A stretch of 64,000 nt of DNA from sequence record PP680570.1; one strand, 5' to 3'. The translations under genes were made by a program, and so were the position numbers. Below are positions 6,295 to 42,090 of the stretch, in pieces. The notes beneath the pieces are model-generated. The model had not been told where the DNA came from, did not search any database, and saw nothing but the letters and a program-made list of their open reading frames with translations. The DNA comes from Enterococcus phage VRE9_4. How positions within the stretch are numbered: the stretch's first letter is position 1; each line of letters begins with the position of its first letter.

Positions 6295-8724
6295 TTAAGC
6301 TGAGCAAGCAACACAATCATCTACACGAGAAGCGTCATGAGAACGAGTATAGTAAGAAGATTTAATTCCTCTAGACCAAACTTCCATATGAAGACGAAGT
6401 AAGTTTTTAACCTTAATATCATCTAAGATATATAAATTAAATGAAGTAGATTGATCTACCCATTTTTGACGTTCTGCGTTGTGGAGAATAGCCCACATAT
6501 GACCCAAATCTCTCTCTCCTTCAAACTCCATTAACATAGTTGGTTTATAATAGAACCATGTTTCTAAACTTAATTCTGGAGCAATAACAGGTGTACGAGA
6601 ATCTTTCTTACCATCAAAAAAGATAGTGTCGTAAACTGTGTCTGCCGCTGCAGTAGAACCAGCTAACAAGGAAGTAGAACCTGTTGGAGCAACTGCTCTT
6701 AAATATCCATTTCGCATACCTTTTTTAGCTTTGTAATAAACCTCTGCTCGATAAGCATCCTCAATACGATCTTGACAAACTCCTCGACGATCCAACCATT
6801 CTCCTGTATTCCATTGACTTCCCTCAAATAAAGGATAACTTCCTTTTTCTTGAGCTAAATCTGCCGACGCCTCAATGATATTTAGCATGATTCTTTCTTC
6901 TAGCCGAGCAATTAATTTAGTTGCTTCAACTGAATCAAAATGAATTCCTTGTTTAGCCAAAACTGCTGCAATACCTTGTTCACCAATCCCAATAGCACGA
7001 TAACGATTATTTGTATATTGGGCTTGTAAAACAGGTAAATTATTAACAGTGATAACTGCATCAGTAGCACGAACTTGAGTACGTAAAACCTGTCTTAATT
7101 TTTCAAATGCTTTAACATCATCGCTGGTTTGTGGTCCTTCGACAGAAAGGGTAAAATCTTTCAAAACATTGTTAAGAACAATAGAAGATAAATTACATGT
7201 TACAAAATCTCCACTTTGTTTATGGACAATAATTTCTCCTAGTTCATTAATAGTTTCTTTAGTCATAATTGTAGGAGATTGATTTTGTACAATCTCAGAA
7301 CACAAATTAGAGCAGTATACCATTCCTGCATGATTATTAGGATTATCTCTATTTGCAGTATCCCGATAGAACATATAAGGCAAACCAGTTTCTAGTTGAG
7401 AACGCATAATTTTTTTCATAATTTCAATAGCTGGCAAACGTTTCTTTAAATGTAAATCGTTATTATCTACAGCCTTAAAATAGTGATAAGAGAAAGCGTG
7501 ACGATCAGGATCTAGTGGTGATTTCCCATCCCATTTTTCTTTATCGTAGAAATCTTCCAGAGAAAAACCTAATACTTTTTTCACTTCGTGAGGGTCAAAT
7601 AAATACCAGTCTCCTCGTTTTTCTACTTGTTGCATAAATAAATCAGGAATAGAAGCACCTAAAAATAGTTCATGCGCTCGTTTAGATAGATCTCCTGTAT
7701 TTAAACGTAACTCTAAGAAATCTTCTATATCATAATGCCAAACATCCAAATATGCTGCAATAGCACCACTGCGAACTCCTAGTTGGTCTACCGAAACAGC
7801 AGTATTATTTAATTGTTTAAGCCAACCAACAATACCTCCTGCAGCACCGACATTTCCTCTAATATCTGAACCAGCAGCACGAATTTTACCTACATAAATA
7901 CCAATTCCTCCACCAGCCTTGCTTAGGCGAGCAGCATCTGTATTGTCATCATAGATCCCTTGTAAGCTATCATCTGTTGTTAAAATAAAGCAACTAGAAA
8001 ATTGTGCATCTGGTCGTCCAGCATTTGCAAATGTTGGAGTAGCCATAGTAACTTCTTGTTTAGATAGTACATCATATAATTCTTTTACATGTTGTAGTCT
8101 ATCTTGTGTTTCTTCTCTTAATAAAGAAATCGCAATTGTCATATAACGTTCTTGTGGTAATTCAAATACTGAACGTCCTTTGTCTTTAGCTCGAATAAGA
8201 TATCTTTCAGACATATTATATAAACCAGCATAAGTCAAAAGTAAATCTCGTTCTGGCTTAATATATTTACCTAATTCTTGAATTTCTTCTTTAGTATATT
8301 TTACAAAAATTTCTGGTTCAATAAGACCTTGTTCACCAAGAGAAGAAAGAAGACCAAAATAGTCGCCATATTTTGAATCAACATCATAGCTTCTATTTTT
8401 TGAAGCTCGTTTATACAACGAATTTAATAATGCTCTAGCTGCAACAAATTCAAATTGGGTATTGCCTAATTTATCAAAATCCATCATTTCCCCATCTTTA
8501 AAGTCCATGATTCTATCAATTGCATTTTGAATAATAACATCATTGATATCTCGGAAATCAATCTCTTGTCTACCCTGAATTTGTTTAATAACGCCCTTCT
8601 TATATGCTTCAAACGTATCTGGATGAACATCCAGTCCTTCCTTAAAGCTATCTAATTTATTAATTAATCGTTGTGGATCAAATTCCAATTTTCTCAATCC
8701 ATTATCTTTTACTACTACTGTCAA
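6295..8724 (-). CDS. nrdE: ribonucleotide reductase class Ib alpha subunit
   Basis: 809 aa with the catalytic NLCSEI motif and the C-terminal CxxC redox pair (...DDCVACSA). Part of the class Ib operon. Confidence 0.9.
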   Translation of the reverse strand: MTVVVKDNGLRKLEFDPQRLINKLDSFKEGLDVHPDTFEAYKKGVIKQIQGRQEIDFRDINDVIIQNAIDRIMDFKDGEMMDFDKLGNTQFEFVAARALLNSLYKRASKNRSYDVDSKYGDYFGLLSSLGEQGLIEPEIFVKYTKEEIQELGKYIKPERDLLLTYAGLYNMSERYLIRAKDKGRSVFELPQERYMTIAISLLREETQDRLQHVKELYDVLSKQEVTMATPTFANAGRPDAQFSSCFILTTDDSLQGIYDDNTDAARLSKAGGGIGIYVGKIRAAGSDIRGNVGAAGGIVGWLKQLNNTAVSVDQLGVRSGAIAAYLDVWHYDIEDFLELRLNTGDLSKRAHELFLGASIPDLFMQQVEKRGDWYLFDPHEVKKVLGFSLEDFYDKEKWDGKSPLDPDRHAFSYHYFKAVDNNDLHLKKRLPAIEIMKKIMRSQLETGLPYMFYRDTANRDNPNNHAGMVYCSNLCSEIVQNQSPTIMTKETINELGEIIVHKQSGDFVTCNLSSIVLNNVLKDFTLSVEGPQTSDDVKAFEKLRQVLRTQVRATDAVITVNNLPVLQAQYTNNRYRAIGIGEQGIAAVLAKQGIHFDSVEATKLIARLEERIMLNIIEASADLAQEKGSYPLFEGSQWNTGEWLDRRGVCQDRIEDAYRAEVYYKAKKGMRNGYLRAVAPTGSTSLLAGSTAAADTVYDTIFFDGKKDSRTPVIAPELSLETWFYYKPTMLMEFEGERDLGHMWAILHNAERQKWVDQSTSFNLYILDDIKVKNLLRLHMEVWSRGIKSSYYTRSHDASRVDDCVACSA

Positions 8725-32756: not shown

Positions 32757-33158
32757 ATGGGAAAAATTGTAGAATATATTTTAGTTAATAAAGAATTAAA
32801 TATGAGTGTTGGTAAAATCGCTGGTCAAGTTGCTCATGTACAAACAGTTATTGATAATAAAATTTTTGAATTAGTTTCATCAGAAGAAATTCTTGACGAA
32901 GATATTATGGGTATTCGTTTTGATAAAGAAAAAGAAATAACCAATAATTATTATGATTGGTTTTATTCTGGATCTCAAACAAAAATTATCTTACGAGCCA
33001 AAGAAAAAGATTTGCTTAAAGCAATTGATATGGGAGCAGTATACATTAGGGATAATGGTTTAACTGAGATTCCTTCAGGTTCATTAACAGCTGTTGGTTT
33101 TTTCCCACAACCAAAAGATAATTTAGTAGATTTTACCAAAAAATTCCAATTGTTGTAA
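32757..33158 (+). CDS. peptidyl-tRNA hydrolase, PTH2 family
   Basis: KELNMSVGKIAGQVAHV and DNGLTEIPSGSLTAVGFFP align with the PTH2 catalytic core (DLxMGKGKIAAQCSHA ... DAGRTQIAPGS.TVLGIGP). Confidence 0.6.
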   Translation: MGKIVEYILVNKELNMSVGKIAGQVAHVQTVIDNKIFELVSSEEILDEDIMGIRFDKEKEITNNYYDWFYSGSQTKIILRAKEKDLLKAIDMGAVYIRDNGLTEIPSGSLTAVGFFPQPKDNLVDFTKKFQLL

Positions 33159-35667: not shown

Positions 35668-36120
35668 ATGATAGAGTTAGCCTCTCATATTGTAGATGTG
35701 AGTTTAGAACATAAAAAATATATTTATCACTTACAGTTACAAAAAATCACGTATTATACTGTATTACAAGGACTAAAATTAAATTTAATAGATAAAGATA
35801 CCTTTGAAGAATTATATAAATTTGAGCTTGATAGATTTACACCATCAAGGTATGGTCCTCGGTCTGAAGCTATATTTCTTCGATATGGTGTTTTTGGAGC
35901 GGAAAGGATTTTTACTAATTCTTTTAGCAATTTTTGTCTAAGGGATATGGATTTTTCCCATTTAAATCCTATTATTCTTCCTCTTTTGGAAGAACAGACA
36001 ATGGATTTATGTAGAAAAAGTATGAAAAATCCTATTTTTGAAGAACGATTTAAAGATAATAAAGAACTTAGTATTGAAGATATATTTGAACTTAGCAAAA
36101 AATATTCAGATTTGAAATAA
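35668..36120 (+). CDS. hypothetical protein (150 aa)
   Basis: Preceded by the conserved TGATATAATTAATTATAAAGTTAAATAAGGAGG promoter-leader. Confidence 0.5.
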   Translation: MIELASHIVDVSLEHKKYIYHLQLQKITYYTVLQGLKLNLIDKDTFEELYKFELDRFTPSRYGPRSEAIFLRYGVFGAERIFTNSFSNFCLRDMDFSHLNPIILPLLEEQTMDLCRKSMKNPIFEERFKDNKELSIEDIFELSKKYSDLK

Positions 36121-36173
36121 AAAATATAAAATGATATAATTAATTATAAAGTTAAATAAGGAGGAAATTTTAA

Positions 36174-36704
36174 ATGAAAAAAAGTTTAGTAGGGTTCTCA
36201 ATTGTTGCAATGTTTGGTTTAGGTTTAGTAGGATGTACTAAAGGAGAAGTTCCTGATGAACAATGGAAAAGCGAAAATTCTACTGAACAGACAGTAGAAA
36301 GTAGCACAGTAGAATCGTCTGAGCAAAAAGAACCTTATAAAAAAGATGAGGTTCAATTATCTACACTAGAACAACAAGTTTTAGATGCTTTTCAACAAAG
36401 TTTTCAATCAACAGGACCGGTTCGTTTTGATTCTGTAAACAAATATTATATTATTACACCAACAGACCCTCAATTTACGCAAGAAATGGCAGCTATCATG
36501 GATGGCACATTAAGTTTAGATGTATGGACTAATTTAGTTCAAAATGTTCAACAAACATCCTTAGGTTTACAAGATACTCTTGGTAGTGGATATACAATTA
36601 TTATTGAAAATCCATTTGAAACAGGTCAGATGTTTTTGGCGGTAAGTGATGGAAAAGTTGTTTTTGATGGTTTAACAGAATATATGACTGGTCAAAACAC
36701 ATAA
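36174..36704 (+). CDS. lipoprotein
   Basis: Signal peptide with lipobox LGLVGC (MKKSLVGFSIVAMFGLGLVGCTKG). Preceded by the conserved promoter-leader. Confidence 0.6.
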   Translation: MKKSLVGFSIVAMFGLGLVGCTKGEVPDEQWKSENSTEQTVESSTVESSEQKEPYKKDEVQLSTLEQQVLDAFQQSFQSTGPVRFDSVNKYYIITPTDPQFTQEMAAIMDGTLSLDVWTNLVQNVQQTSLGLQDTLGSGYTIIIENPFETGQMFLAVSDGKVVFDGLTEYMTGQNT

Positions 36705-36705
36705 C

Positions 36706-36734
36706 TTGAAAAAATATGAATAACATGTTATAAT
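36706..36734 (+). promoter_or_regulatory. sigma-A-type promoter (TTGAAA-17-TATAAT) driving the tRNA-like/ncRNA block
   Basis: Hexamers at 36706-36711 and 36729-36734 with exact 17-bp spacing. No ORF follows. Confidence 0.55.
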
Positions 36735-36753
36735 ATTTATATAAGATAAAGTT

Positions 36754-36829
36754 ACTTGAGTGGTCTTAAAAAGGAAAGACGCATGGTTTAATCTTCCATG
36801 AAACGTTGGTTCGAGTCCAACCTCAAGAA
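36754..36829 (+). ncRNA. tRNA-like element with non-canonical (9-nt) anticodon loop
   Basis: Acceptor ACTTGAG/CTCAAGA (6 bp, 1:72 mismatch), D-arm GTCT...AGAC, T-arm GTTGG-TTCGAGT-CCAAC. Anticodon stem CATGG/CCATG encloses TTTAATCTT. Confidence 0.4.
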
Positions 36830-36905
36830 TACCAGGACTGGCTATCCTTTCACCTTATAGCTAGAGGTTGATAAAGATAAAGTGGAATTAACCACAGTTG
36901 GCTGC

Positions 36906-37029
36906 TCCCTAGGTTAAAGAAGATACCTATTGGGTCGGGGCATAAGCTAAGTTAACTAATAAACAACTTCTTTTGGTTAGCTTTTCTCACGAGTGATTGT
37001 TGAGGTTCAATTCCTTCTTAACCTATGGG
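36906..37029 (+). ncRNA. structured RNA module: 12-bp bulged terminal helix enclosing a T-arm-like hairpin (Y-RNA-like candidate)
   Basis: CCCTAGGTTAA (36907-36917) pairs with TTAACCTATGGG (37018-37029) with one bulged A. Internal TGAGG-TTCAATT-CCTTC T-arm mimic and AAGCTAA/TTAGCTT helix. No canonical anticodon arm. Confidence 0.3.
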
Positions 37030-37090
37030 CGGGGCAACACTCTACCGGAGATAAAAATATATAATTTAGTTTAATATTCTCGAGAACGGT

Positions 37091-37189
37091 TGAGATATGG
37101 CGGAAAGGTAGACGCAAGGAGAGTCTCCCCATTGGAGACCCCTGTGCATGACGATGCAGTGTAGGTTCGAATCCTACTATCTCAGTTAA
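37091..37189 (+). ncRNA. class II tRNA-like element with disrupted anticodon region (tRNA mimic or pseudogene)
   Basis: Perfect acceptor TGAGATA/TATCTCA, Leu/Ser-type D-arm TGGCGGAAAGGTAGACGC, variable-arm hairpin TGCATGACGATGCA, T-arm GTAGG-TTCGAAT-CCTAC. Extra nucleotides between the D-stem and the anticodon-like hairpin GTCTCC-CCATT-GGAGAC. Confidence 0.3.
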
Positions 37190-37246
37190 ACAGGGACTTG
37201 AGCTAATTCATTTTAGCCAGTCCTTATCCCGAAAGGGAAAAATAAT

Positions 37247-37275
37247 TTGACATTTTAAGCATAATATGTTATAAT
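37247..37275 (+). promoter_or_regulatory. sigma-A-type promoter (TTGACA-17-TATAAT) for tRNA-Glu
   Basis: Consensus hexamers with 17-bp spacer, 32 nt upstream of the tRNA 5' end. Confidence 0.6.
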
Positions 37276-37306
37276 TATTATATAATAAAGATAAGAAATA
37301 TAAAAC

Positions 37307-37378
37307 GGCTTGTTGGTCAAGAAGTTAAGACGCTCGACTTTCACTCGGGAATCACAGGTGCAAATCCTGTACAAGTCA
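37307..37378 (+). tRNA. tRNA-Glu (anticodon TTC)
   Basis: Cloverleaf: acceptor GGCTTGT/ACAAGTC, anticodon stem CTCGA/TCGGG with loop CTTTCAC, T-arm ACAGG-TGCAAAT-CCTGT. 72 nt. Confidence 0.7.
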
Positions 37379-37466
37379 TTAACATTATTTGAAAAAAATC
37401 TTTCAAAATGTTATAATTAATATGTAAAAAGAAATAAAAAACTTATTTTAAAAGGAGAGATTCATC

Positions 37467-37859
37467 ATGGAAAAACAAACTAAAGCAGATATGTATCGTA
37501 ACGCAGCAAAATTGTTGGAAGTAAATGCTCCTGAATATGCAGAAATGTTATTGGAAGATGCTCAAAGAATTGAAGCTCGTAACGCAAGTCGTCGGAATGT
37601 TGATACTAAAGTTCAAAAAGAAAATAAACACATCGCTGCTTTAGTAATTGAGTTTTTCCATAATGATGCTGAAAATGGAATCGCTTATGACAGTGGCGAA
37701 ATTGCAAATGCTGTTGGAATCGAAGTTTCTCCTCAGAAAATGTCAGCAATTATGCGTTTAGTTGGGGATGAAGTAGATAAGGTAAATCAAGCTACTAACA
37801 ATAAAGATCATATTGGATATAAAAAGAAAGGAACTGAATTAGTTTCTGATGAAAATTAG
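37467..37859 (+). CDS. small DNA-binding-like protein, family B (paralog of 53094..53483 and 58683..59096)
   Basis: Lys-rich centre and C-terminal VSPQKMSAIMRLVGDEV...IGYKKK shared with the two paralogs (TPQKMTPRLKGLVEEG; TPQKLTAIMKPLVDNE). Confidence 0.55.
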   Translation: MEKQTKADMYRNAAKLLEVNAPEYAEMLLEDAQRIEARNASRRNVDTKVQKENKHIAALVIEFFHNDAENGIAYDSGEIANAVGIEVSPQKMSAIMRLVGDEVDKVNQATNNKDHIGYKKKGTELVSDEN

Positions 37860-37880
37860 GACAAAATGTCCTAATTAAAT

Positions 37881-37903
37881 ATCCCCATATTTTATTGGGG
37901 ATA
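37881..37903 (+). terminator. rho-independent terminator
   Basis: ATCCCCA-TATTTTAT-TGGGGAT hairpin after the stop of 37467..37859. A second short hairpin TAGGACAAAATGTCCTA lies immediately before it. Confidence 0.55.
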
Positions 37904-37906
37904 CAC

Positions 37907-37981
37907 CAGGGTATAGGAGAATTTGGTTAATCCGCTGCATTTGGGATGCAGAGATTGTTGGTTCAAATCCAGCTACCCTGA
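37907..37981 (+). tRNA. tRNA-Pro (anticodon TGG)
   Basis: Acceptor CAGGGTA/TACCCTG with C1:G72 (typical of bacterial tRNA-Pro), anticodon stem CTGCA/TGCAG with loop TTTGGGA, T-arm GTTGG-TTCAAAT-CCAGC. Confidence 0.75.
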
Positions 37982-37988
37982 TTGAAAC

Positions 37989-38050
37989 AACGTGTTAGAA
38001 CGTTGGGCGTGAAGGGATTTATCCTATGAAGGGATTTATCCTAACACGTT
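37989..38050 (+). repeat. 10-bp inverted repeat (AACGTGTTAG/CTAACACGTT) enclosing a tandem duplication GAAGGGATTTATCCTA x2
   Basis: Direct reading. Lies between tRNA-Pro and tRNA-Asn. Confidence 0.6.
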
Positions 38051-38057
38051 TAAACAT

Positions 38058-38128
38058 TCACCTATGATGAAATGGTATCATGACTGGCTGTTAACCAGTT
38101 CTTGTAGGTTCGAATCCTGCTGGGTGAG
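38058..38128 (+). tRNA. tRNA-Asn (anticodon GTT)
   Basis: Acceptor TCACCTA/TGGGTGA (one G-U), D-arm ATGA-AATGGTA-TCAT, anticodon stem ACTGG/CCAGT with loop CTGTTAA, T-arm GTAGG-TTCGAAT-CCTGC. Confidence 0.6.
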
Positions 38129-38134
38129 TATTTT

Positions 38135-38217
38135 GCGAGAGTGGCGGAATTGGCAGACGCACTAGATTTAGGATCTAGCGTTTTCATAACGTGTGGGTTC
38201 AAGTCCCACCTCTTGTA
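38135..38217 (+). tRNA. tRNA-Leu (anticodon TAG)
   Basis: Class II tRNA: acceptor GCGAGAG/CTCTTGT (two G-U), D-arm TGGCGGAATTGGCAGACGC, anticodon stem CTAGA/TCTAG with loop TTTAGGA, long variable arm, T-arm GTGGG-TTCAAGT-CCCAC. Confidence 0.7.
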
Positions 38218-38226
38218 TAATAAAAT

Positions 38227-38310
38227 GGAGAGTCCCTGTTGGCTAAAGGAAGAATGTTTTGAAAGCATTTGGCGGTAACACGTCCAAGGGTTCGATTCCC
38301 TTACTCTCCT
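38227..38310 (+). tRNA. tRNA-Ser (anticodon TGA)
   Basis: Acceptor GGAGAGT/ACTCTCC, anticodon stem AATGT/GCATT with loop TTTGAAA, long variable arm, T-arm AAGGG-TTCGATT-CCCTT. Confidence 0.7.
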
Positions 38311-38420
38311 TAAAGAATCTTACAGCAAATATCATATGTTTAATAGGCTAATTCAAATATATTATATAAGATTCTTGAAGTTATTTTTAGCCGATTAAGA
38401 GATAAAGGAGATAAATAACT

Positions 38421-39932
38421 ATGACATTTTTAGATAATTTGAAAGAGGAAGCAACAGTTGGACGCACTTTTAATGGTGCAACCACTTATACTACTTCATT
38501 AAATGCTAATGTTGACTTTTTTGCATTAGGTGGGTCTATGCGATACCAAAATATTGGAGATAAGATTTCATTATTTGAAAAAGCATATAATGAAGACAGA
38601 GCTATTGCATTGAGAAACCTAGTTTATATGCGAGATATTCGTAATGGTGGACTAGGTGAAAGAGATATGTTCCACGCAGGAATTTGGTTCTTAGCTAAAA
38701 AGAAAGATGAAAAAGCACTTCATGTTATCATGGATAATGTAGCTGATTTTAGTCGCTGGGACGATCTATTTTTCATTATGAAACAAGACGAAAAATTGTT
38801 TGATTATGGACTAATTATCATTAAAACTCAGCTTTTGAAAGATATGGATAATATGCGAAAAGGCAAAGAAATTTCTTTATTAGGAAAATGGTTGCCTAAT
38901 ATCAATGCTAAAAACGAAGAACGAAGAGCTTTTGGTCTTAGAGTTGCTAATGCTTTAGGATACACTAAGCCTAGTGATTATAAGGTTTACCGAAAAATGT
39001 TGGTTAACCTAAGAGAAAAATTAGATTTAGTAGAAGTAAAATTAGCTGCTAAAGATTATGACTCAATTGATTTTTCTAAACTACCTTCTCGAGCAGGATT
39101 CAAGTATCGCTCAGCATTTTGGCGCCATATTTCAGATCGCTATTCTGAATTTTTGGAAGCTGTGAATAATGGCGAAGCTACAATGAACGGAAGTTTGGTA
39201 ATGCCAGATGAAATTATTAAAGCTTATGGATATCGAGGGTATTTTTCTTATGGATATTCTTCTTATGAAGAAAAACCTGAATTAGAAGCTGCATGGAAAT
39301 CTCTAAAAGATACTGTTAAGGGTTCTGATGAGAATGTAATTGTAGTCGCAGATACTTCTGCTTCTATGTGGGGTAAACCATGGGAAGTGGCTGAAGGTTT
39401 AGCAATTTATACTGCTGAACGCTTGGAAGGACCGTTCAAGAATAATTTTATCACTTTCTCTAGACGCCCACAATTGGTAACTCTACCAAGTAATTGTTCC
39501 TTACGAGATAAAATGAACGAATATTCTCGTCATTCTATTATCGAAAACACAGATATTGAAGCAGTATTTAATCTTATTTTAGATACTGCTATCAAGAATA
39601 ACACTCCAAAAGAGGAAGTTCCATCTAAAATTATCATTGTTTCAGATATGGAATTTGATCTTCAACGAGGAAATGACGTTACACATTTCAAACTTGCAAA
39701 ATCTCGTTTTGAGAACGCTGGTTATGAAATGCCAGATGTAGTCTTTTGGAATGTAAATGCTAGATTAGGAAACTTACCTGTTCGTTATAATGAACAAGGA
39801 GTAGCATTAGTATCTGGATTCAGCACAAATATTCTAACTTCCATCTTAAATGGGAAACTAGAAACTCCAGAAGCTATGATGTTAGAAACGTTATCTAATC
39901 CAGCATTTGACTTCATTGATGAAGCCATCTAA
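38421..39932 (+). CDS. Ro60/Rsr-like protein (TROVE-like N-terminal region + vWA domain with MIDAS)
   Basis: 503 aa. N-terminal FNGATTYTTSLNANVDFFALGGSMRY...RNGGLGERDMFHAG resembles TROVE-domain motifs. vWA MIDAS VVADTSASMWG and IIIVSDMEFD in the C-terminal half. Confidence 0.5.
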   Translation: MTFLDNLKEEATVGRTFNGATTYTTSLNANVDFFALGGSMRYQNIGDKISLFEKAYNEDRAIALRNLVYMRDIRNGGLGERDMFHAGIWFLAKKKDEKALHVIMDNVADFSRWDDLFFIMKQDEKLFDYGLIIIKTQLLKDMDNMRKGKEISLLGKWLPNINAKNEERRAFGLRVANALGYTKPSDYKVYRKMLVNLREKLDLVEVKLAAKDYDSIDFSKLPSRAGFKYRSAFWRHISDRYSEFLEAVNNGEATMNGSLVMPDEIIKAYGYRGYFSYGYSSYEEKPELEAAWKSLKDTVKGSDENVIVVADTSASMWGKPWEVAEGLAIYTAERLEGPFKNNFITFSRRPQLVTLPSNCSLRDKMNEYSRHSIIENTDIEAVFNLILDTAIKNNTPKEEVPSKIIIVSDMEFDLQRGNDVTHFKLAKSRFENAGYEMPDVVFWNVNARLGNLPVRYNEQGVALVSGFSTNILTSILNGKLETPEAMMLETLSNPAFDFIDEAI

Positions 39933-39970
39933 AATGCCCCCCTTTTCTACCTCTTAATTGAGGTAGTTAC

Positions 39971-40044
39971 GCTTCTTTAGCTCAGTAGGTAGTAGCGCCA
40001 GTCTGAAGAACTGGAGGTCCCTGGTTCGATTCCAGGAGGAAGCA
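39971..40044 (+). tRNA. tRNA-Phe (anticodon GAA)
   Basis: Acceptor GCTTCTT/AGGAAGC, D-arm AGCTCAGTAGGTAGT, anticodon stem CCAGT/ACTGG with loop CTGAAGA, T-arm CCTGG-TTCGATT-CCAGG. Confidence 0.85.
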
Positions 40045-40101
40045 TTAATTCAGCCCAGGAAAGTGCCAATACTATATTCGCTCTCTTGGGCTTTTTCATA
40101 T

Positions 40102-40130
40102 TTGAAAAAATATATTAATCATGTTATAAT
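40102..40130 (+). promoter_or_regulatory. sigma-A-type promoter (TTGAAA-17-TATAAT) for tRNA-Cys
   Basis: Consensus spacing. CGCTCTCTTGGG motif at 40079-40090 just upstream. Confidence 0.55.
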
Positions 40131-40162
40131 TAATCATAAAGTTAATTAAGAACTTTAAAAAT

Positions 40163-40236
40163 GTCCCTGTCGCCAAGAGGCTTAAGGCTATGGATTGCAA
40201 ACCCATAATACGTGAGTTCGAATCTCACCAGGGACT
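40163..40236 (+). tRNA. tRNA-Cys (anticodon GCA)
   Basis: Acceptor GTCCCTG/CAGGGAC, anticodon stem ATGGA/CCCAT (4 bp plus mismatch) with loop TTGCAAA, T-arm GTGAG-TTCGAAT-CTCAC. Confidence 0.7.
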
Positions 40237-40263
40237 TTTAAATAAAAAGGAGTCGATAATGGA

Positions 40264-40560
40264 ATGGATAAGGAAAAAATTAAAGAATCTTGGAGCTATT
40301 GTTTAACCCGAAGCACTAACATCAGAAAATTAGCTTCTAAAAATGAAGCTATTAGGAAAGATAGTTTAGAAAAAAACATTGCTACTAAAACTGCTTTAGA
40401 AATTTTAAAAGAGCAATTAAATGTTTTAATTGAGATGCTGGAGAAAATTGATTTAGAAGAAGAACTTCTCTTAACTTATCAAGAGAAAGCTGCGGTAGAG
40501 TATCTTATTGAAGTATATGAAAATCTTATTATTGTGAAAGAGGGGGAGCAACTTGACTAA
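40264..40560 (+). CDS. hypothetical protein (98 aa)
   Basis: ORF with AAAGGAG RBS. Confidence 0.45.
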   Translation: MDKEKIKESWSYCLTRSTNIRKLASKNEAIRKDSLEKNIATKTALEILKEQLNVLIEMLEKIDLEEELLLTYQEKAAVEYLIEVYENLIIVKEGEQLD

Positions 40561-41194
40561 ATTTATTACAAGTGATTGGCATTTCTTTCATAATAATGCT
40601 TGTGGTCCAGAAGGATTCATTTCTACTAGAAAAAAGTTTTCCTCTGTAGAAGAGATGAACGATAGTATTATTAAAACTATTAATCAAAAGGTTGGTAGAG
40701 ATGATACCATTATTCATTTAGGAGATATTGGCTTTGGTAAACCTAAAAAATTGTTTGAAACATTAGAAAAAATCAATGGACAAATTATTTTAATTAAAGG
40801 AAATCATGATAGTTCAAAATTATTTAAGTATATTGTAAATAATAATTATCATTATCCATATAGTAACCCTAAAAAACGTAAACAATCTCCTGACCGAGTT
40901 AAATTTTTAGTTGAAGAAGTTGGTTTAAGGGAAAAAATGAATGGTAAGGTTTACTATTTAACTCACTACCCATTTCAGTTAGGAGAACAACGTAAAAATA
41001 TGCGTTCAATTTGTGGACATATTCATGAGCAAATTGCTCCTGAGGCTAATATGATTAACGTAGGTATTGATTCTCCTGAAATTACTTCAAAGATTTCTAA
41101 TTTTGGAGAACCTCTTCTTCTGGAAGATGCAATAGAATTAGTTGATAAAAAATGGGAAAAATGGTATAATACTATAAGATTTTTGGGAAGTTAA
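40553..41194 (+). CDS. metallophosphoesterase (calcineurin-like)
   Basis: N-terminal SDWHFFH motif, GDIGFG, GNHD motifs. 213 aa. Confidence 0.65.
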   Translation: MTKFITSDWHFFHNNACGPEGFISTRKKFSSVEEMNDSIIKTINQKVGRDDTIIHLGDIGFGKPKKLFETLEKINGQIILIKGNHDSSKLFKYIVNNNYHYPYSNPKKRKQSPDRVKFLVEEVGLREKMNGKVYYLTHYPFQLGEQRKNMRSICGHIHEQIAPEANMINVGIDSPEITSKISNFGEPLLLEDAIELVDKKWEKWYNTIRFLGS

Positions 41195-41207
41195 TCTTCC
41201 CTTTTAT

Positions 41208-41297
41208 GGAGCTATGACTGAGAGGTTGAAGGTGACGCACTGCTAATGCGTTAGTCGACATAAAGTTGGCTCATGGGTTCGAATCCCATTAGCTCCT
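41208..41297 (+). tRNA. tRNA-Ser (anticodon GCT)
   Basis: Acceptor GGAGCTA/TAGCTCC, anticodon stem ACGCA/TGCGT with loop CTGCTAA, long variable arm, T-arm ATGGG-TTCGAAT-CCCAT. Preceded by terminator hairpin GGGAAG-TTAATC-TTCCC followed by TTTT. Confidence 0.75.
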
Positions 41298-41323
41298 TTT
41301 ATTAAAAATAGGGGGGTTTTTAT

Positions 41324-41539
41324 ATGTTCCGTACTAGTTTAGCATTTTTCTTATCTGCTCTAGCAATGATCGTAATTATGATTCTATTTGCTCCATTTCT
41401 GTTATATTTAATTTGGAATTTTGTAGTAGTAATAGCGTTTCCAGGATTGTTTACTCTAACCTTTTTCCAATGTTTTAGTATAACATTATTGCTTGCTTTT
41501 TTGAGAGCAGTTTTCACTAATAAAAAATCTAACGACTAA
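41324..41539 (+). CDS. small membrane protein (71 aa)
   Basis: RBS GGGGGG. Two hydrophobic helices. Confidence 0.5.
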   Translation: MFRTSLAFFLSALAMIVIMILFAPFLLYLIWNFVVVIAFPGLFTLTFFQCFSITLLLAFLRAVFTNKKSND

Positions 41540-41565
41540 AAAATTAAAGGAGAATGATATAAATA

Positions 41566-41706
41566 TGGCGAAAAAACAAAACACTACTAAAGAACCAGTT
41601 GAATTGACACAAAAGATTGATTTTACTGAATGGTTGAAAAAACAGGAAGCAGCCTTTAGAAGTAAAGTTTATAAAGAACATAAGAAATCTAAGCCCGTTA
41701 AATAGG
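41566..41706 (+). CDS. small basic protein (46 aa)
   Basis: RBS AAAGGAGAATG followed by ATG. Terminator hairpin AGCCC-GTTAAATA-GGGCT plus T7 (41692-41716) immediately after. Confidence 0.4.
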
Positions 41707-41778
41707 GCTTTTTTTCTTGACTTTATTTGAAGCATATGTTATAATATAAGTATAATAGAAATAAGGAGGAATATAACA

Positions 41779-42090
41779 TTGCCAGATAAAACTAATACAG
41801 TAGATGTTGAATATTTAACGTATTGGAAACTAACTCCAACAGAAAAAGATAGGCTAAAAACAGATTATGGTATTTCTAGAAATAAAGCTAAATATGATAT
41901 TGATAAACATATTGTTGTACCGCAACCAGTAAATGCAGAAGATTTAAATTTCTTTCCTGGTGAATTTGTAGCTTCTTTTGTTATCTACGAAGGACAAAAT
42001 TATCCAGTATTTTTAAAAATTAATGATCCTAATGAATACGTTGATTTACCAATTGAATCAACACCAAAAGGAGATGAGTTAATTGATTAA
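41779..42090 (+). CDS. hypothetical protein (103 aa)
   Basis: TTG start after AAGGAGG. Upstream TGTTATAAT extended -10. Confidence 0.5.
   Translation: MPDKTNTVDVEYLTYWKLTPTEKDRLKTDYGISRNKAKYDIDKHIVVPQPVNAEDLNFFPGEFVASFVIYEGQNYPVFLKINDPNEYVDLPIESTPKGDELID

Follow-up and report, generated by a model that had tools for sequence, protein, structure and literature searches.

A predicted Ro60-like protein and a candidate Y-RNA-like stem-loop in the tRNA region of Enterococcus phage VRE9_4

In a 64,000-nucleotide (nt) stretch of Enterococcus phage VRE9_4 (PP680570.1; the window, hereafter), a plus-strand gene for a predicted Ro60-like RNA-binding protein is preceded by a short stem-loop carrying the sequence ACAGCAA. 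We consider it likely that the protein and this stem-loop (positions 38313 to 38376) are a minimal member of a phage system in which Ro60-like proteins of the DUF2828 family are accompanied by Y-RNA-like RNAs marked by ACAGC(A/G)A (ACAGCRA), and that a block of tRNA-shaped elements farther upstream is a separate operon. For the family as a whole, we hold it about evenly balanced whether DUF2828/DUF7788 proteins and the ACAGC(A/G)A RNAs constitute a distinct, widespread and hitherto undescribed branch of Ro-Y ribonucleoproteins (RNPs) in tailed phages, with three RNA architectures. An earlier note on this DNA, made from its letters alone, had proposed a Ro60-like protein with its Y RNAs in the upstream block; the protein and the general association have held, and the assignment of the RNAs has changed.

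The Ro60-like protein and its stem-loop

The window region is 94 to 98% identical in DNA to the Enterococcus phages VRE9_1, VRE9_2, VRE9_3, EF1, EF5, and H1, whose genomes measure 138 to 142 kilobases (kb), and its source is an Enterococcus myophage of the VRE9/EF1/H1 group. Compared loci are numbered, L001 being EF1, L002 VRE9_1, L003 VRE9_3, L087 the phage EFDG1, and L153 the phage Bas63; L004 is a 138-kb metagenomic contig whose DUF2828 protein is 58% identical to that of the window. The features on which the argument turns are as follows.

38227 to 38310, plus strand: tRNA-Ser(UGA), called by ARAGORN, directly 5' of the stem-loop
38311 to 38345, plus strand: junction of a 4.3-kb deletion, located by blastn, with 35-nt matches at L003 3598-3632 and 7891-7925
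38313 to 38376, plus strand: candidate minimal Y-RNA-like stem-loop or mRNA leader element, with stem, motif, and a match to covariance model R2 (see below)
38421 to 39932, plus strand: gene for the predicted Ro60-like RNA-binding protein (Pfam DUF2828 and DUF7788; PHROG 850)

The open reading frame (ORF) of 503 amino acids (aa) is present as the earlier note gave it. Pfam searches with the protein returned DUF7788 (PF25043; E = 7e-44), DUF2828 (PF11443; E = 1e-27), and a weak match to VWA_2, and the PHROGs library gave a full-length profile match to phrog_850, "RNA-binding protein" (E = 2e-148 over residues 1 to 497). The vWA domain with its MIDAS (metal ion-dependent adhesion site), read by eye in the note, is borne out, as all residues of the DxSxS...T...D signature (D311, S313, S315, T377, and D409) are invariant in 40 homologues. 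The likening of the N-terminal half to the TROVE domain stands for the predicted fold and falls for the sequence. TROVE (PF05731) was not among the Pfam matches at E values up to 1, and Ro60 was found neither by phmmer nor by hmmsearch with a 40-sequence profile against the sequences of the Protein Data Bank (PDB). In contrast, an AlphaFold2 model built from the 40 homologues (predicted local distance difference test, 91.2; predicted template modeling [TM] score, 0.90) has a helical-repeat ring followed by the vWA domain, and the top five Foldseek matches to it are all Ro60/Rsr entries (E = 4e-7 to 1e-5; TM, 0.41 to 0.60), with vWA-only matches at a TM of about 0.2. Because the model is confident and Ro60/Rsr entries head the structural matches with no match by sequence, the protein, as modeled, has a Ro60 fold without a TROVE sequence signature; the relationship is visible by structure comparison only and not by the sequence route. 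Homologues are found in at least 696 phage records, among them Felix-O1-like, Listeria P100-like, Staphylococcus, Campylobacter, Vibrio, and mycobacterial phages. "Ro-like RNA binding protein" is already the label in some mycobacteriophage records, and literature searches for DUF2828 matched plant and tardigrade papers only.

The stem-loop lies 99 nt upstream of the ATG of this gene, and its stem ends 44 nt before the ATG. Its closing stem is 9 base pairs (bp) long, with positions 38313-38321 (AAGAAUCUU) pairing perfectly with 38368-38376 (AAGAUUCUU), and ACAGCAA (38322-38328) abuts the 5' strand of that stem as the only plus-strand ACAGCRA in non-coding DNA near the Ro-like gene. Judged by the placement used by Chen et al. 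(2014) for Y RNAs, the element is within about 4 kb of a Ro gene and on its strand; judged by terminal stem and 5' motif, it has the stem, and its motif is related to but differs from GNCGAA. L004 has a homologue in the same place with a compensatory change in the stem (AAGAACC/GGUUCUU). We built two covariance models from the family described below, R1 for tRNAs with an ACAGCAA insert and R2 for the YrlA-like form. The best R2 match in 36000-41500 is the stem-loop itself (29.9 bits; E = 1e-4), aligned with the tRNA-like domain skipped. A full YrlA-like match to R2 was not found in the whole 64-kb window, and R1 gave nothing specific there, only ordinary tRNAs at 24 bits or less. The Rfam YrlA model (RF02553; gathering threshold, 69 bits) had no match at E values up to 10 in 36000-42000 or 36730-37260, and the permuted tRNA-like domain typical of YrlA is absent from every element examined in the window. 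As no consensus promoter was found between the promoter at 37389 and the stem-loop, the latter probably belongs to a joint tRNA-mRNA transcript and would come to lie in the mRNA leader. The Ro-like mRNA would then probably be co-transcribed with the upstream tRNAs from the 37389 promoter and freed by tRNA processing, and the stem-loop would most likely be a putative binding site of the protein, serving as an operator for autoregulation or as a minimal RNA of the YrlB kind.

The bareness of this arrangement has a plausible history. The window is short by about 4.3 kb relative to all of its relatives, and because its positions 38311-38345 match both L003 3598-3632 and L003 7891-7925, the loss is ascribed, from the sequences, to recombination between two copies of TAAAGAATCTTACAGCAAATAT, the 5' half of the stem-loop element. 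The deletion took a YrlA-like RNA, other ACAGCAA RNAs, a 57-nt tRNA-like element, about 8 tRNAs, and several ORFs. The relatives have a full YrlA-like RNA right after tRNA-Ser(UGA), with R2 scores of 98.3 bits in VRE9_1, 97.8 in VRE9_3, 92.0 in EF1, and 90.8 in L086; VRE9_3 also has, likewise on this strand, a second short stem-loop and an ACAGCAA RNA of 170 nt whose internal hairpins are different. In the relatives, the 57-nt tRNA-like element, which has no anticodon arm (acceptor, D, and T arms; Rfam tRNA, 40.4 bits), directly precedes the gene-proximal stem-loop (L005 1501-1557; L003, about 7830-7890), a place taken by tRNA-Ser(UGA) in the window. The recombinant stem-loop of the window is identical to the intact gene-proximal copy of the relatives. 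On this account, the window would keep one short copy in the leader of the Ro-like mRNA, the tRNA-like Y RNAs of its relatives having been lost by deletion. If the family were the distinct branch considered above, the window would represent its minimal state, a natural deletion mutant with the leader copy only, which would point to autoregulation of the gene by its own binding site. The group also offers natural genetic material, namely, the window phage with the protein and apparently without tRNA-like Y RNAs, sister phages that keep both, and others that lack half of the upstream block.

ACAGC(A/G)A RNAs across DUF2828 loci

The first clue to the RNA signature was a Rfam YrlA match 110 nt upstream of the DUF2828 gene of L004, which at 35.6 bits is below the threshold of 69 bits and which has the true permuted order of T arm, closed stem, and D arm. 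Rfam YrlA matches at family sites in relatives are likewise below threshold (34 to 41 bits, with values of 35.6 and 40.9 among them). YrlA carries GNCGAA close to its 5' end (PMC4201824, Chen et al. 2014; Rfam RF02553), and the ACAGCAA in L004 was aligned by Rfam with acggCga of the YrlA model. We took 80 DUF2828 loci from IMG/VR and counted motifs over 84 DUF2828 loci. Within 1 kb upstream of the 84 genes (83.5 kb), ACAGC(A/G)A occurs 228 times on the strand of the gene against 5 times on the opposite strand; inside the DUF2828 genes, the two strands have 23 and 21 occurrences. An ungapped stem of at least 7 bp, with its 5' strand abutting the motif, is found at 59% of 192 unique sites versus 9.6% of control positions, with the consensus AAGAnnnnn-ACAGCAA-loop-nnnnnUCUUG. 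In half of the loci (42 of 84), a short ACAGCRA stem-loop lies at most 200 nt from the start codon.

In many of the IMG/VR loci, T-arm motifs are arrayed immediately upstream of the gene and outside the tRNAs called by ARAGORN. Rfam shows these arrays as "tRNAs" of 111 to 141 nt with anticodon-loop insertions of 43 to 65 nt; common to the insertions are a covarying hairpin and, after it, an invariant ACAGCAA. Such tRNA-like RNAs stand in tandem, two to four to an array, by the DUF2828 genes of L009, L012, L016, L028 (2575-2688, 2695-2809, and 2814-2927, for example), L033, L035, L038, L060, and about 45 more. These RNAs have canonical acceptor, D, and T arms, score 44 to 58 bits with the Rfam tRNA model, match no other Rfam family, and are not called by ARAGORN. 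The insertion consists, in order, of an A-rich linker, a covarying 7-bp hairpin, the invariant ACAGCAA, and a second small hairpin, and three recognizable subtypes follow one another in fixed order in each array. A Rfam YrlA match at L028 2636-2749 was rejected, as it spans the junction of two tandem tRNA-like elements.

In 15 cases, the loop that follows the motif holds the YrlA architecture of T arm, closed acceptor-like stem, and D arm. In the alignment of this form, named A8, 96.7% of cells are paired, 20 of the 21 pairs show changes on both sides, and the covariation score is 0.80 against 0.19 after shuffling and at most 0.18 with the partners slid; as the closing stem was a selection criterion for A8, only its T and acceptor-like helices are independent evidence. 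Domains of the permuted YrlA type are present in VRE9_1, VRE9_3, EF1, L086, L004, EFDG1, and Bas63. Those of published genomes (L003 3599-3726, L002 5615-5742, L001 5723-5852, L087 2440-2561 and 2625-2744, and L153 5927-6052) show the closing stem, ACAGCRA, T arm, closed acceptor-like stem, and D arm, and are either unannotated or covered by tiny hypothetical ORFs such as bas63_0137 and bas63_0138. A third type of ACAGCAA RNA, 161 to 170 nt long, closed by the stem AAGAACGA/UCGUUCUU and with internal hairpins unlike those of tRNAs, is kept between the two clades of Enterococcus phages (L003 4348-4517; L004 3646-3806).

Searches of the DUF2828 loci gave 145 matches with R1 and 105 with R2, all on the gene strand and together spanning about 60 of the 80 IMG/VR loci (a manual count of the tables). 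In 481 kb of unrelated viral DNA, which was not chosen to be rich in tRNA clusters, R1 had three weak matches to ordinary tRNAs and R2 had none. The idea in the earlier note of a Ro60-like protein that travels with Y-RNA-like RNAs is therefore borne out family-wide by genomic association. From these regularities we infer that the partner RNAs of the DUF2828 family carry ACAGC(A/G)A at a helix-to-single-strand junction, and that this motif is the probable counterpart of the Ro-binding GNCGAA/CGAA of YrlA and Yrl RNAs. In the mechanism that we propose, a closing stem of the form AAGAnnnnn/nnnnnUCUU, at whose inner 5' edge the motif is most often placed, would enclose either a permuted tRNA-like domain or a short loop only, and three architectures would be built on a single protein-binding module, i.e., a bare stem-loop in the mRNA leader, a permuted mimic of the YrlA type, and a canonical tRNA with an insert in its anticodon loop. 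ACAGCRA at the junction of a helix, in many cases carried by a tRNA-shaped scaffold, is thus a concrete candidate ligand for DUF2828 proteins, and the signature accounts for many erroneous "tRNA-OTHER", pseudo-tRNA, and tiny-ORF annotations in the tRNA regions of phages. No paper describing the ACAGCAA RNAs was found in a literature made up largely of journals outside subscription.

One alternative is that the ACAGCAA stem-loops are signals for RNase processing, for antitermination or transcription, or for some other protein, and that they co-occur with DUF2828 through a common location in tRNA regions. Many copies do stand directly after tRNA 3' ends or in tandem arrays within tRNA clusters, and their role as ligand of the Ro-like protein is a prediction. 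We nevertheless regard this alternative as unlikely, since the stem-loops concentrate by the DUF2828 gene and on its strand across very different phages, including loci with few or no tRNAs (L008, L014, L019, and L046), since the RNAs share the YrlA architecture and give Rfam YrlA matches, and since the unrelated viral DNA, with the proviso on its choice given above, has none.

The promoter-driven block upstream of the gene

The earlier note had placed the Y RNAs of the protein in an ORF-free segment farther upstream, which has the following features.

36706 to 36734, plus strand: promoter P1 of the non-coding block (TTGAAA, 17 nt, TATAAT; extended -10)
36754 to 36829, plus strand: element 1, a tRNA-shaped RNA (Rfam tRNA, 41.0 bits) with a 9-nt anticodon loop and an A1-A72 mismatch
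36834 to 36844, plus strand: 5' arm of an 11-nt complement, with its partner at 37214-37224; not conserved in L004
36893 to 37045, plus strand: middle element, an unclassified structured RNA whose hairpins H1 and H2 covary with L004 and L152
37091 to 37185, plus strand: element 3, a class II tRNA-shaped RNA (Rfam tRNA, 38.5 bits) with an extended, bulged anticodon arm capped by CUCCCCAUUGGAG
37214 to 37224, plus strand: 3' arm of the 11-nt complement, which also forms a local hairpin with 37193-37212

Much of the description in that note is accurate. The promoter matches the consensus at 11 of 12 positions and has the TG of an extended -10 element; the stretch from 36705 to 37466 contains no ORF that reaches 60 aa; T-loop motifs are found at 36808-36818, 37004-37014, and 37164-37174; and ARAGORN calls no tRNA in any of the three elements. 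The 9-nt anticodon loop of element 1 is confirmed, and in element 3 a longer helix with a 5-nt loop stands in place of the anticodon arm. Both of these elements pass the Rfam tRNA threshold of 29 bits and have normal tRNA topology; neither has a 5-bp anticodon stem with a 7-nt loop and a readable anticodon. The larger helices proposed there fare less well. The closing helix of the middle element (36907-36917/37018-37028; 91% complementary) has no counterpart in L004 or L152, where the covariation is in a local hairpin. The long-range helix of 11 bp is a perfect complement, one base off the position first given for its 3' arm, with a chance expectation of about 0.03 within 500 nt by a rough estimate; it is not found in L004 and competes with local hairpins on either side.

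In L004 and L152, the block begins with the promoter, has tRNA-Gln(UUG) where the window has element 1, and continues with homologues of the middle element and of element 3 and then with tRNA-Met. Element 1 (loop UUUAAUCUU) sits exactly where L004 has an ordinary tRNA-Gln(UUG) (945-1016) and may be derived from a tRNA of that type. The homologue of the middle element is at about 1077-1228 of L004. Its hairpins in the window are H1 (36910-36914/36925-36929), which has a purine-rich loop, H2 (36949-36958/36974-36983), and a T-loop-like hairpin at about 37004-37014, and H1 reads UAGGU[loop]ACCUA in the window versus GGAGUG[loop]CACUCU in L004 and L152. A single-stranded UUGGGNCGGGGCA and the T-loop-like hairpin AGGUUCRAUUCCU are conserved. 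The purine-rich loop (AAGAAG in the window and AAGAC in L004) has its complement immediately 3' of the T-loop hairpin, so that a pseudoknot may be formed. Neither the window version nor the L004 version matched a Rfam family, and identity as a transfer-messenger RNA (tmRNA) was rejected, ARAGORN finding no tmRNA and the short reading frames not being conserved between the window and L004. The homologue of element 3 (L004 1264-1358) is 85% identical, with an invariant CUCCCCAUUGGAG loop and with compensatory changes between the clades in the acceptor (two pairs), variable, and T stems. Because of these stem changes and the invariant loop, element 3 is, on comparative sequence evidence, a constrained tRNA-shaped RNA and not a decaying pseudogene.

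A scan of viral contigs with exact patterns recovered one close relative of the block (L086); matches in L088 to L090 were rejected as chance occurrences in coding DNA, and the 15-mer TCTCCCCATTGGAGA had 61 matches, with a T arm nearby only in L086. A metagenome scan added L151, of the window type, and L152, of the L004 type. The block can also be lost in part, as a 287-bp deletion (window 36858-37145) in EF1, EF5, VRE9_3, and H1 takes out the middle element together with the 5' half of element 3, leaving of the latter only the variable arm, the T arm, and the 3' acceptor strand; these four phages keep the Ro-like gene at 94 to 95% identity. We conclude that the block (36741-37245) is a separate promoter-driven tRNA operon of non-decoding, tRNA-shaped RNAs that is conserved but dispensable, its RNAs presumably being processed together with the tRNAs. 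The species 1 and 2 RNAs of phage T4 are small stable RNAs of unknown function inside a phage tRNA cluster; the likeness to them of the block, with its non-decoding, structured, and partly tRNA-shaped RNAs, is one of kind only.

Against a functional operon, it may be argued that the block consists of functionless, decaying tRNA pseudogenes with spacer and that the stem-loop before the Ro-like gene is a mere deletion scar. Element 1 is indeed labeled a tRNA pseudogene in the EF1 annotation and occupies the place of the intact tRNA-Gln of L004, four viable phages have lost half of the block, and the stem-loop is a recombinant of two copies. This explanation has a small chance of being right, in our estimate, because all helices of element 3 are kept by compensatory changes, because H1 and H2 of the middle element covary, and because the recombinant stem-loop equals the intact copy of the relatives at a gene-proximal position conserved in the 42 of 84 loci mentioned above.

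The proposal of the earlier note itself, that the three elements transcribed from P1 are the Y RNAs of the Ro-like protein, had reasonable grounds, as the elements mimic tRNAs with non-decoding anticodon regions, lie on the strand of the gene 1.2 kb from it, and in part (element 3 and the middle element) are kept in L004, whose Ro-like protein is only 58% identical; moreover, Ro60 proteins also bind misfolded or non-canonical RNAs (PMC12135203). We think it very unlikely, given that the block has its own promoter, neither an ACAGCRA motif nor its closing stem, no significant match to Rfam YrlA, R1, or R2, a normal tRNA topology instead of the permuted YrlA form, proposed helices that are not conserved, and a 287-bp deletion in four relatives that retain both the gene and the YrlA-like RNA. 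The proximity holds for the window as a derived state: the block is only 1.2 kb from the gene because of the 4.3-kb deletion, and the two lie about 6 kb apart in VRE9_1 and 8.7 kb apart in L004.

The block thus probably has no specific link to the Ro-like gene, and the stem-loop remains the likely partner, as judged for the reading as a whole. Several points weigh against that reading. Structural constraint acts on element 3 and on the middle element, which could therefore still be clients of the protein. The stem-loop is short and AT-rich, with a fold z score of -1.6, which is not exceptional, and a model match of only 29.9 bits. The 4.3-kb deletion may be an artifact of the assembly, collapsed on the 35-nt repeat, and the window covers 64 kb of a genome of about 140 kb, so that a YrlA-like RNA could lie outside it. 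For the family, the association of protein and ACAGCAA RNAs is a genomic one, the covariation of the closing stem in A8 is partly built in by the selection of stem-bearing sequences, and the equivalence of ACAGCAA with GNCGAA derives from one Rfam alignment and from similarity.

The surroundings of these features are a plus-strand block in which small genes alternate with tRNA genes, with eight tRNAs called by ARAGORN in 37307-41297. The gene at 32757-33158 does encode a PTH2 peptidyl-tRNA hydrolase, as the earlier note had it (Pfam; E = 3.5e-16). A calcineurin-like phosphoesterase gene (40553-41194) stands just 3' of the Ro-like gene, between tRNA-Cys and tRNA-Ser(GCU), and the same phosphoesterase is found 3' of the Ro-like gene in VRE9_3 and L005 as well. 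Four near-identical consensus promoters (36706-36734, 37247-37275, 37389-37417, and 40102-40130; TTGAMA, 17 nt, TATAAT), each with TG before the -10 element, head short tRNA or small-gene units in the window, and promoters of this type are found at 801-830 and 884-913 of L004.

Comparison with known Ro-Y RNA systems

One close system is the bacterial Rsr (Ro60) with its YrlA and YrlB RNAs (PMC4201824). Common to both are a ring protein with a vWA/MIDAS domain, a partner RNA encoded beside the gene and on its strand, and a modular RNA in which a terminal stem and a 5' motif are combined with a permuted tRNA-like domain of T arm, closed acceptor-like stem, and D arm; YrlB, a shorter RNA with the motif and without the tRNA-like domain, parallels the domain-less form, the only one that the window has. 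Unlike Rsr, the window protein has no TROVE sequence match and the motif is ACAGC(A/G)A instead of GNCGAA; unlike YrlA, the RNAs of DUF2828 loci come in arrays of two to seven per locus, and one form is a module in the anticodon loop of a non-permuted tRNA.

Two phage systems show that the idea of a phage Ro-Y RNP in a tRNA cluster, as put forward in the earlier note, is not new. For Thermus phage phiLo, Hu et al. (2025) solved a Ro60-Yrl complex (PMC12135203; PDB 9l5y); this Ro60 binds two upstream Yrl RNAs with CGAA and forms complexes with the host polynucleotide phosphorylase (PNPase). The likeness is in two small stem-bulge RNAs (Yrl1 and Yrl2) that carry a short conserved motif and lie a little upstream of the gene, and the differences are that the phiLo Ro60 is an annotated TROVE protein and that its RNAs have CGAA and no described likeness to tRNAs; in phiLo, binding to the RNAs and PNPase has been shown, whereas here the association is known from the genome.

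In Escherichia phage Bas63 (JohannRWettstein), gp130 is reported in the PhageMaP preprint to have a Ro60-like structure, to be encoded next to a tRNA cluster, and to counter the Ppl defense system, and its authors guessed that some annotated Bas63 tRNAs are Y RNAs (PMC11482910). This protein (bas63_0130) is a true homologue of the window protein, with 33% identity over 95%, and the tRNA cluster of Bas63 has an ACAGCAA stem-loop and a YrlA-like RNA (L153 5927-6052) under two annotated mini-ORFs; unlike in the window, the RNAs lie downstream of the gene. The defense phenotype is reported for Bas63, and the Enterococcus phages resemble it by homology only. By analogy with phiLo Ro60 and Bas63 gp130, the RNP of the window and its relatives would recruit host RNA enzymes or counter host defense. 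For gp130 itself, a homologue already linked to anti-defense, the ACAGCAA RNAs of its tRNA cluster are, on comparative grounds, the candidate partners.

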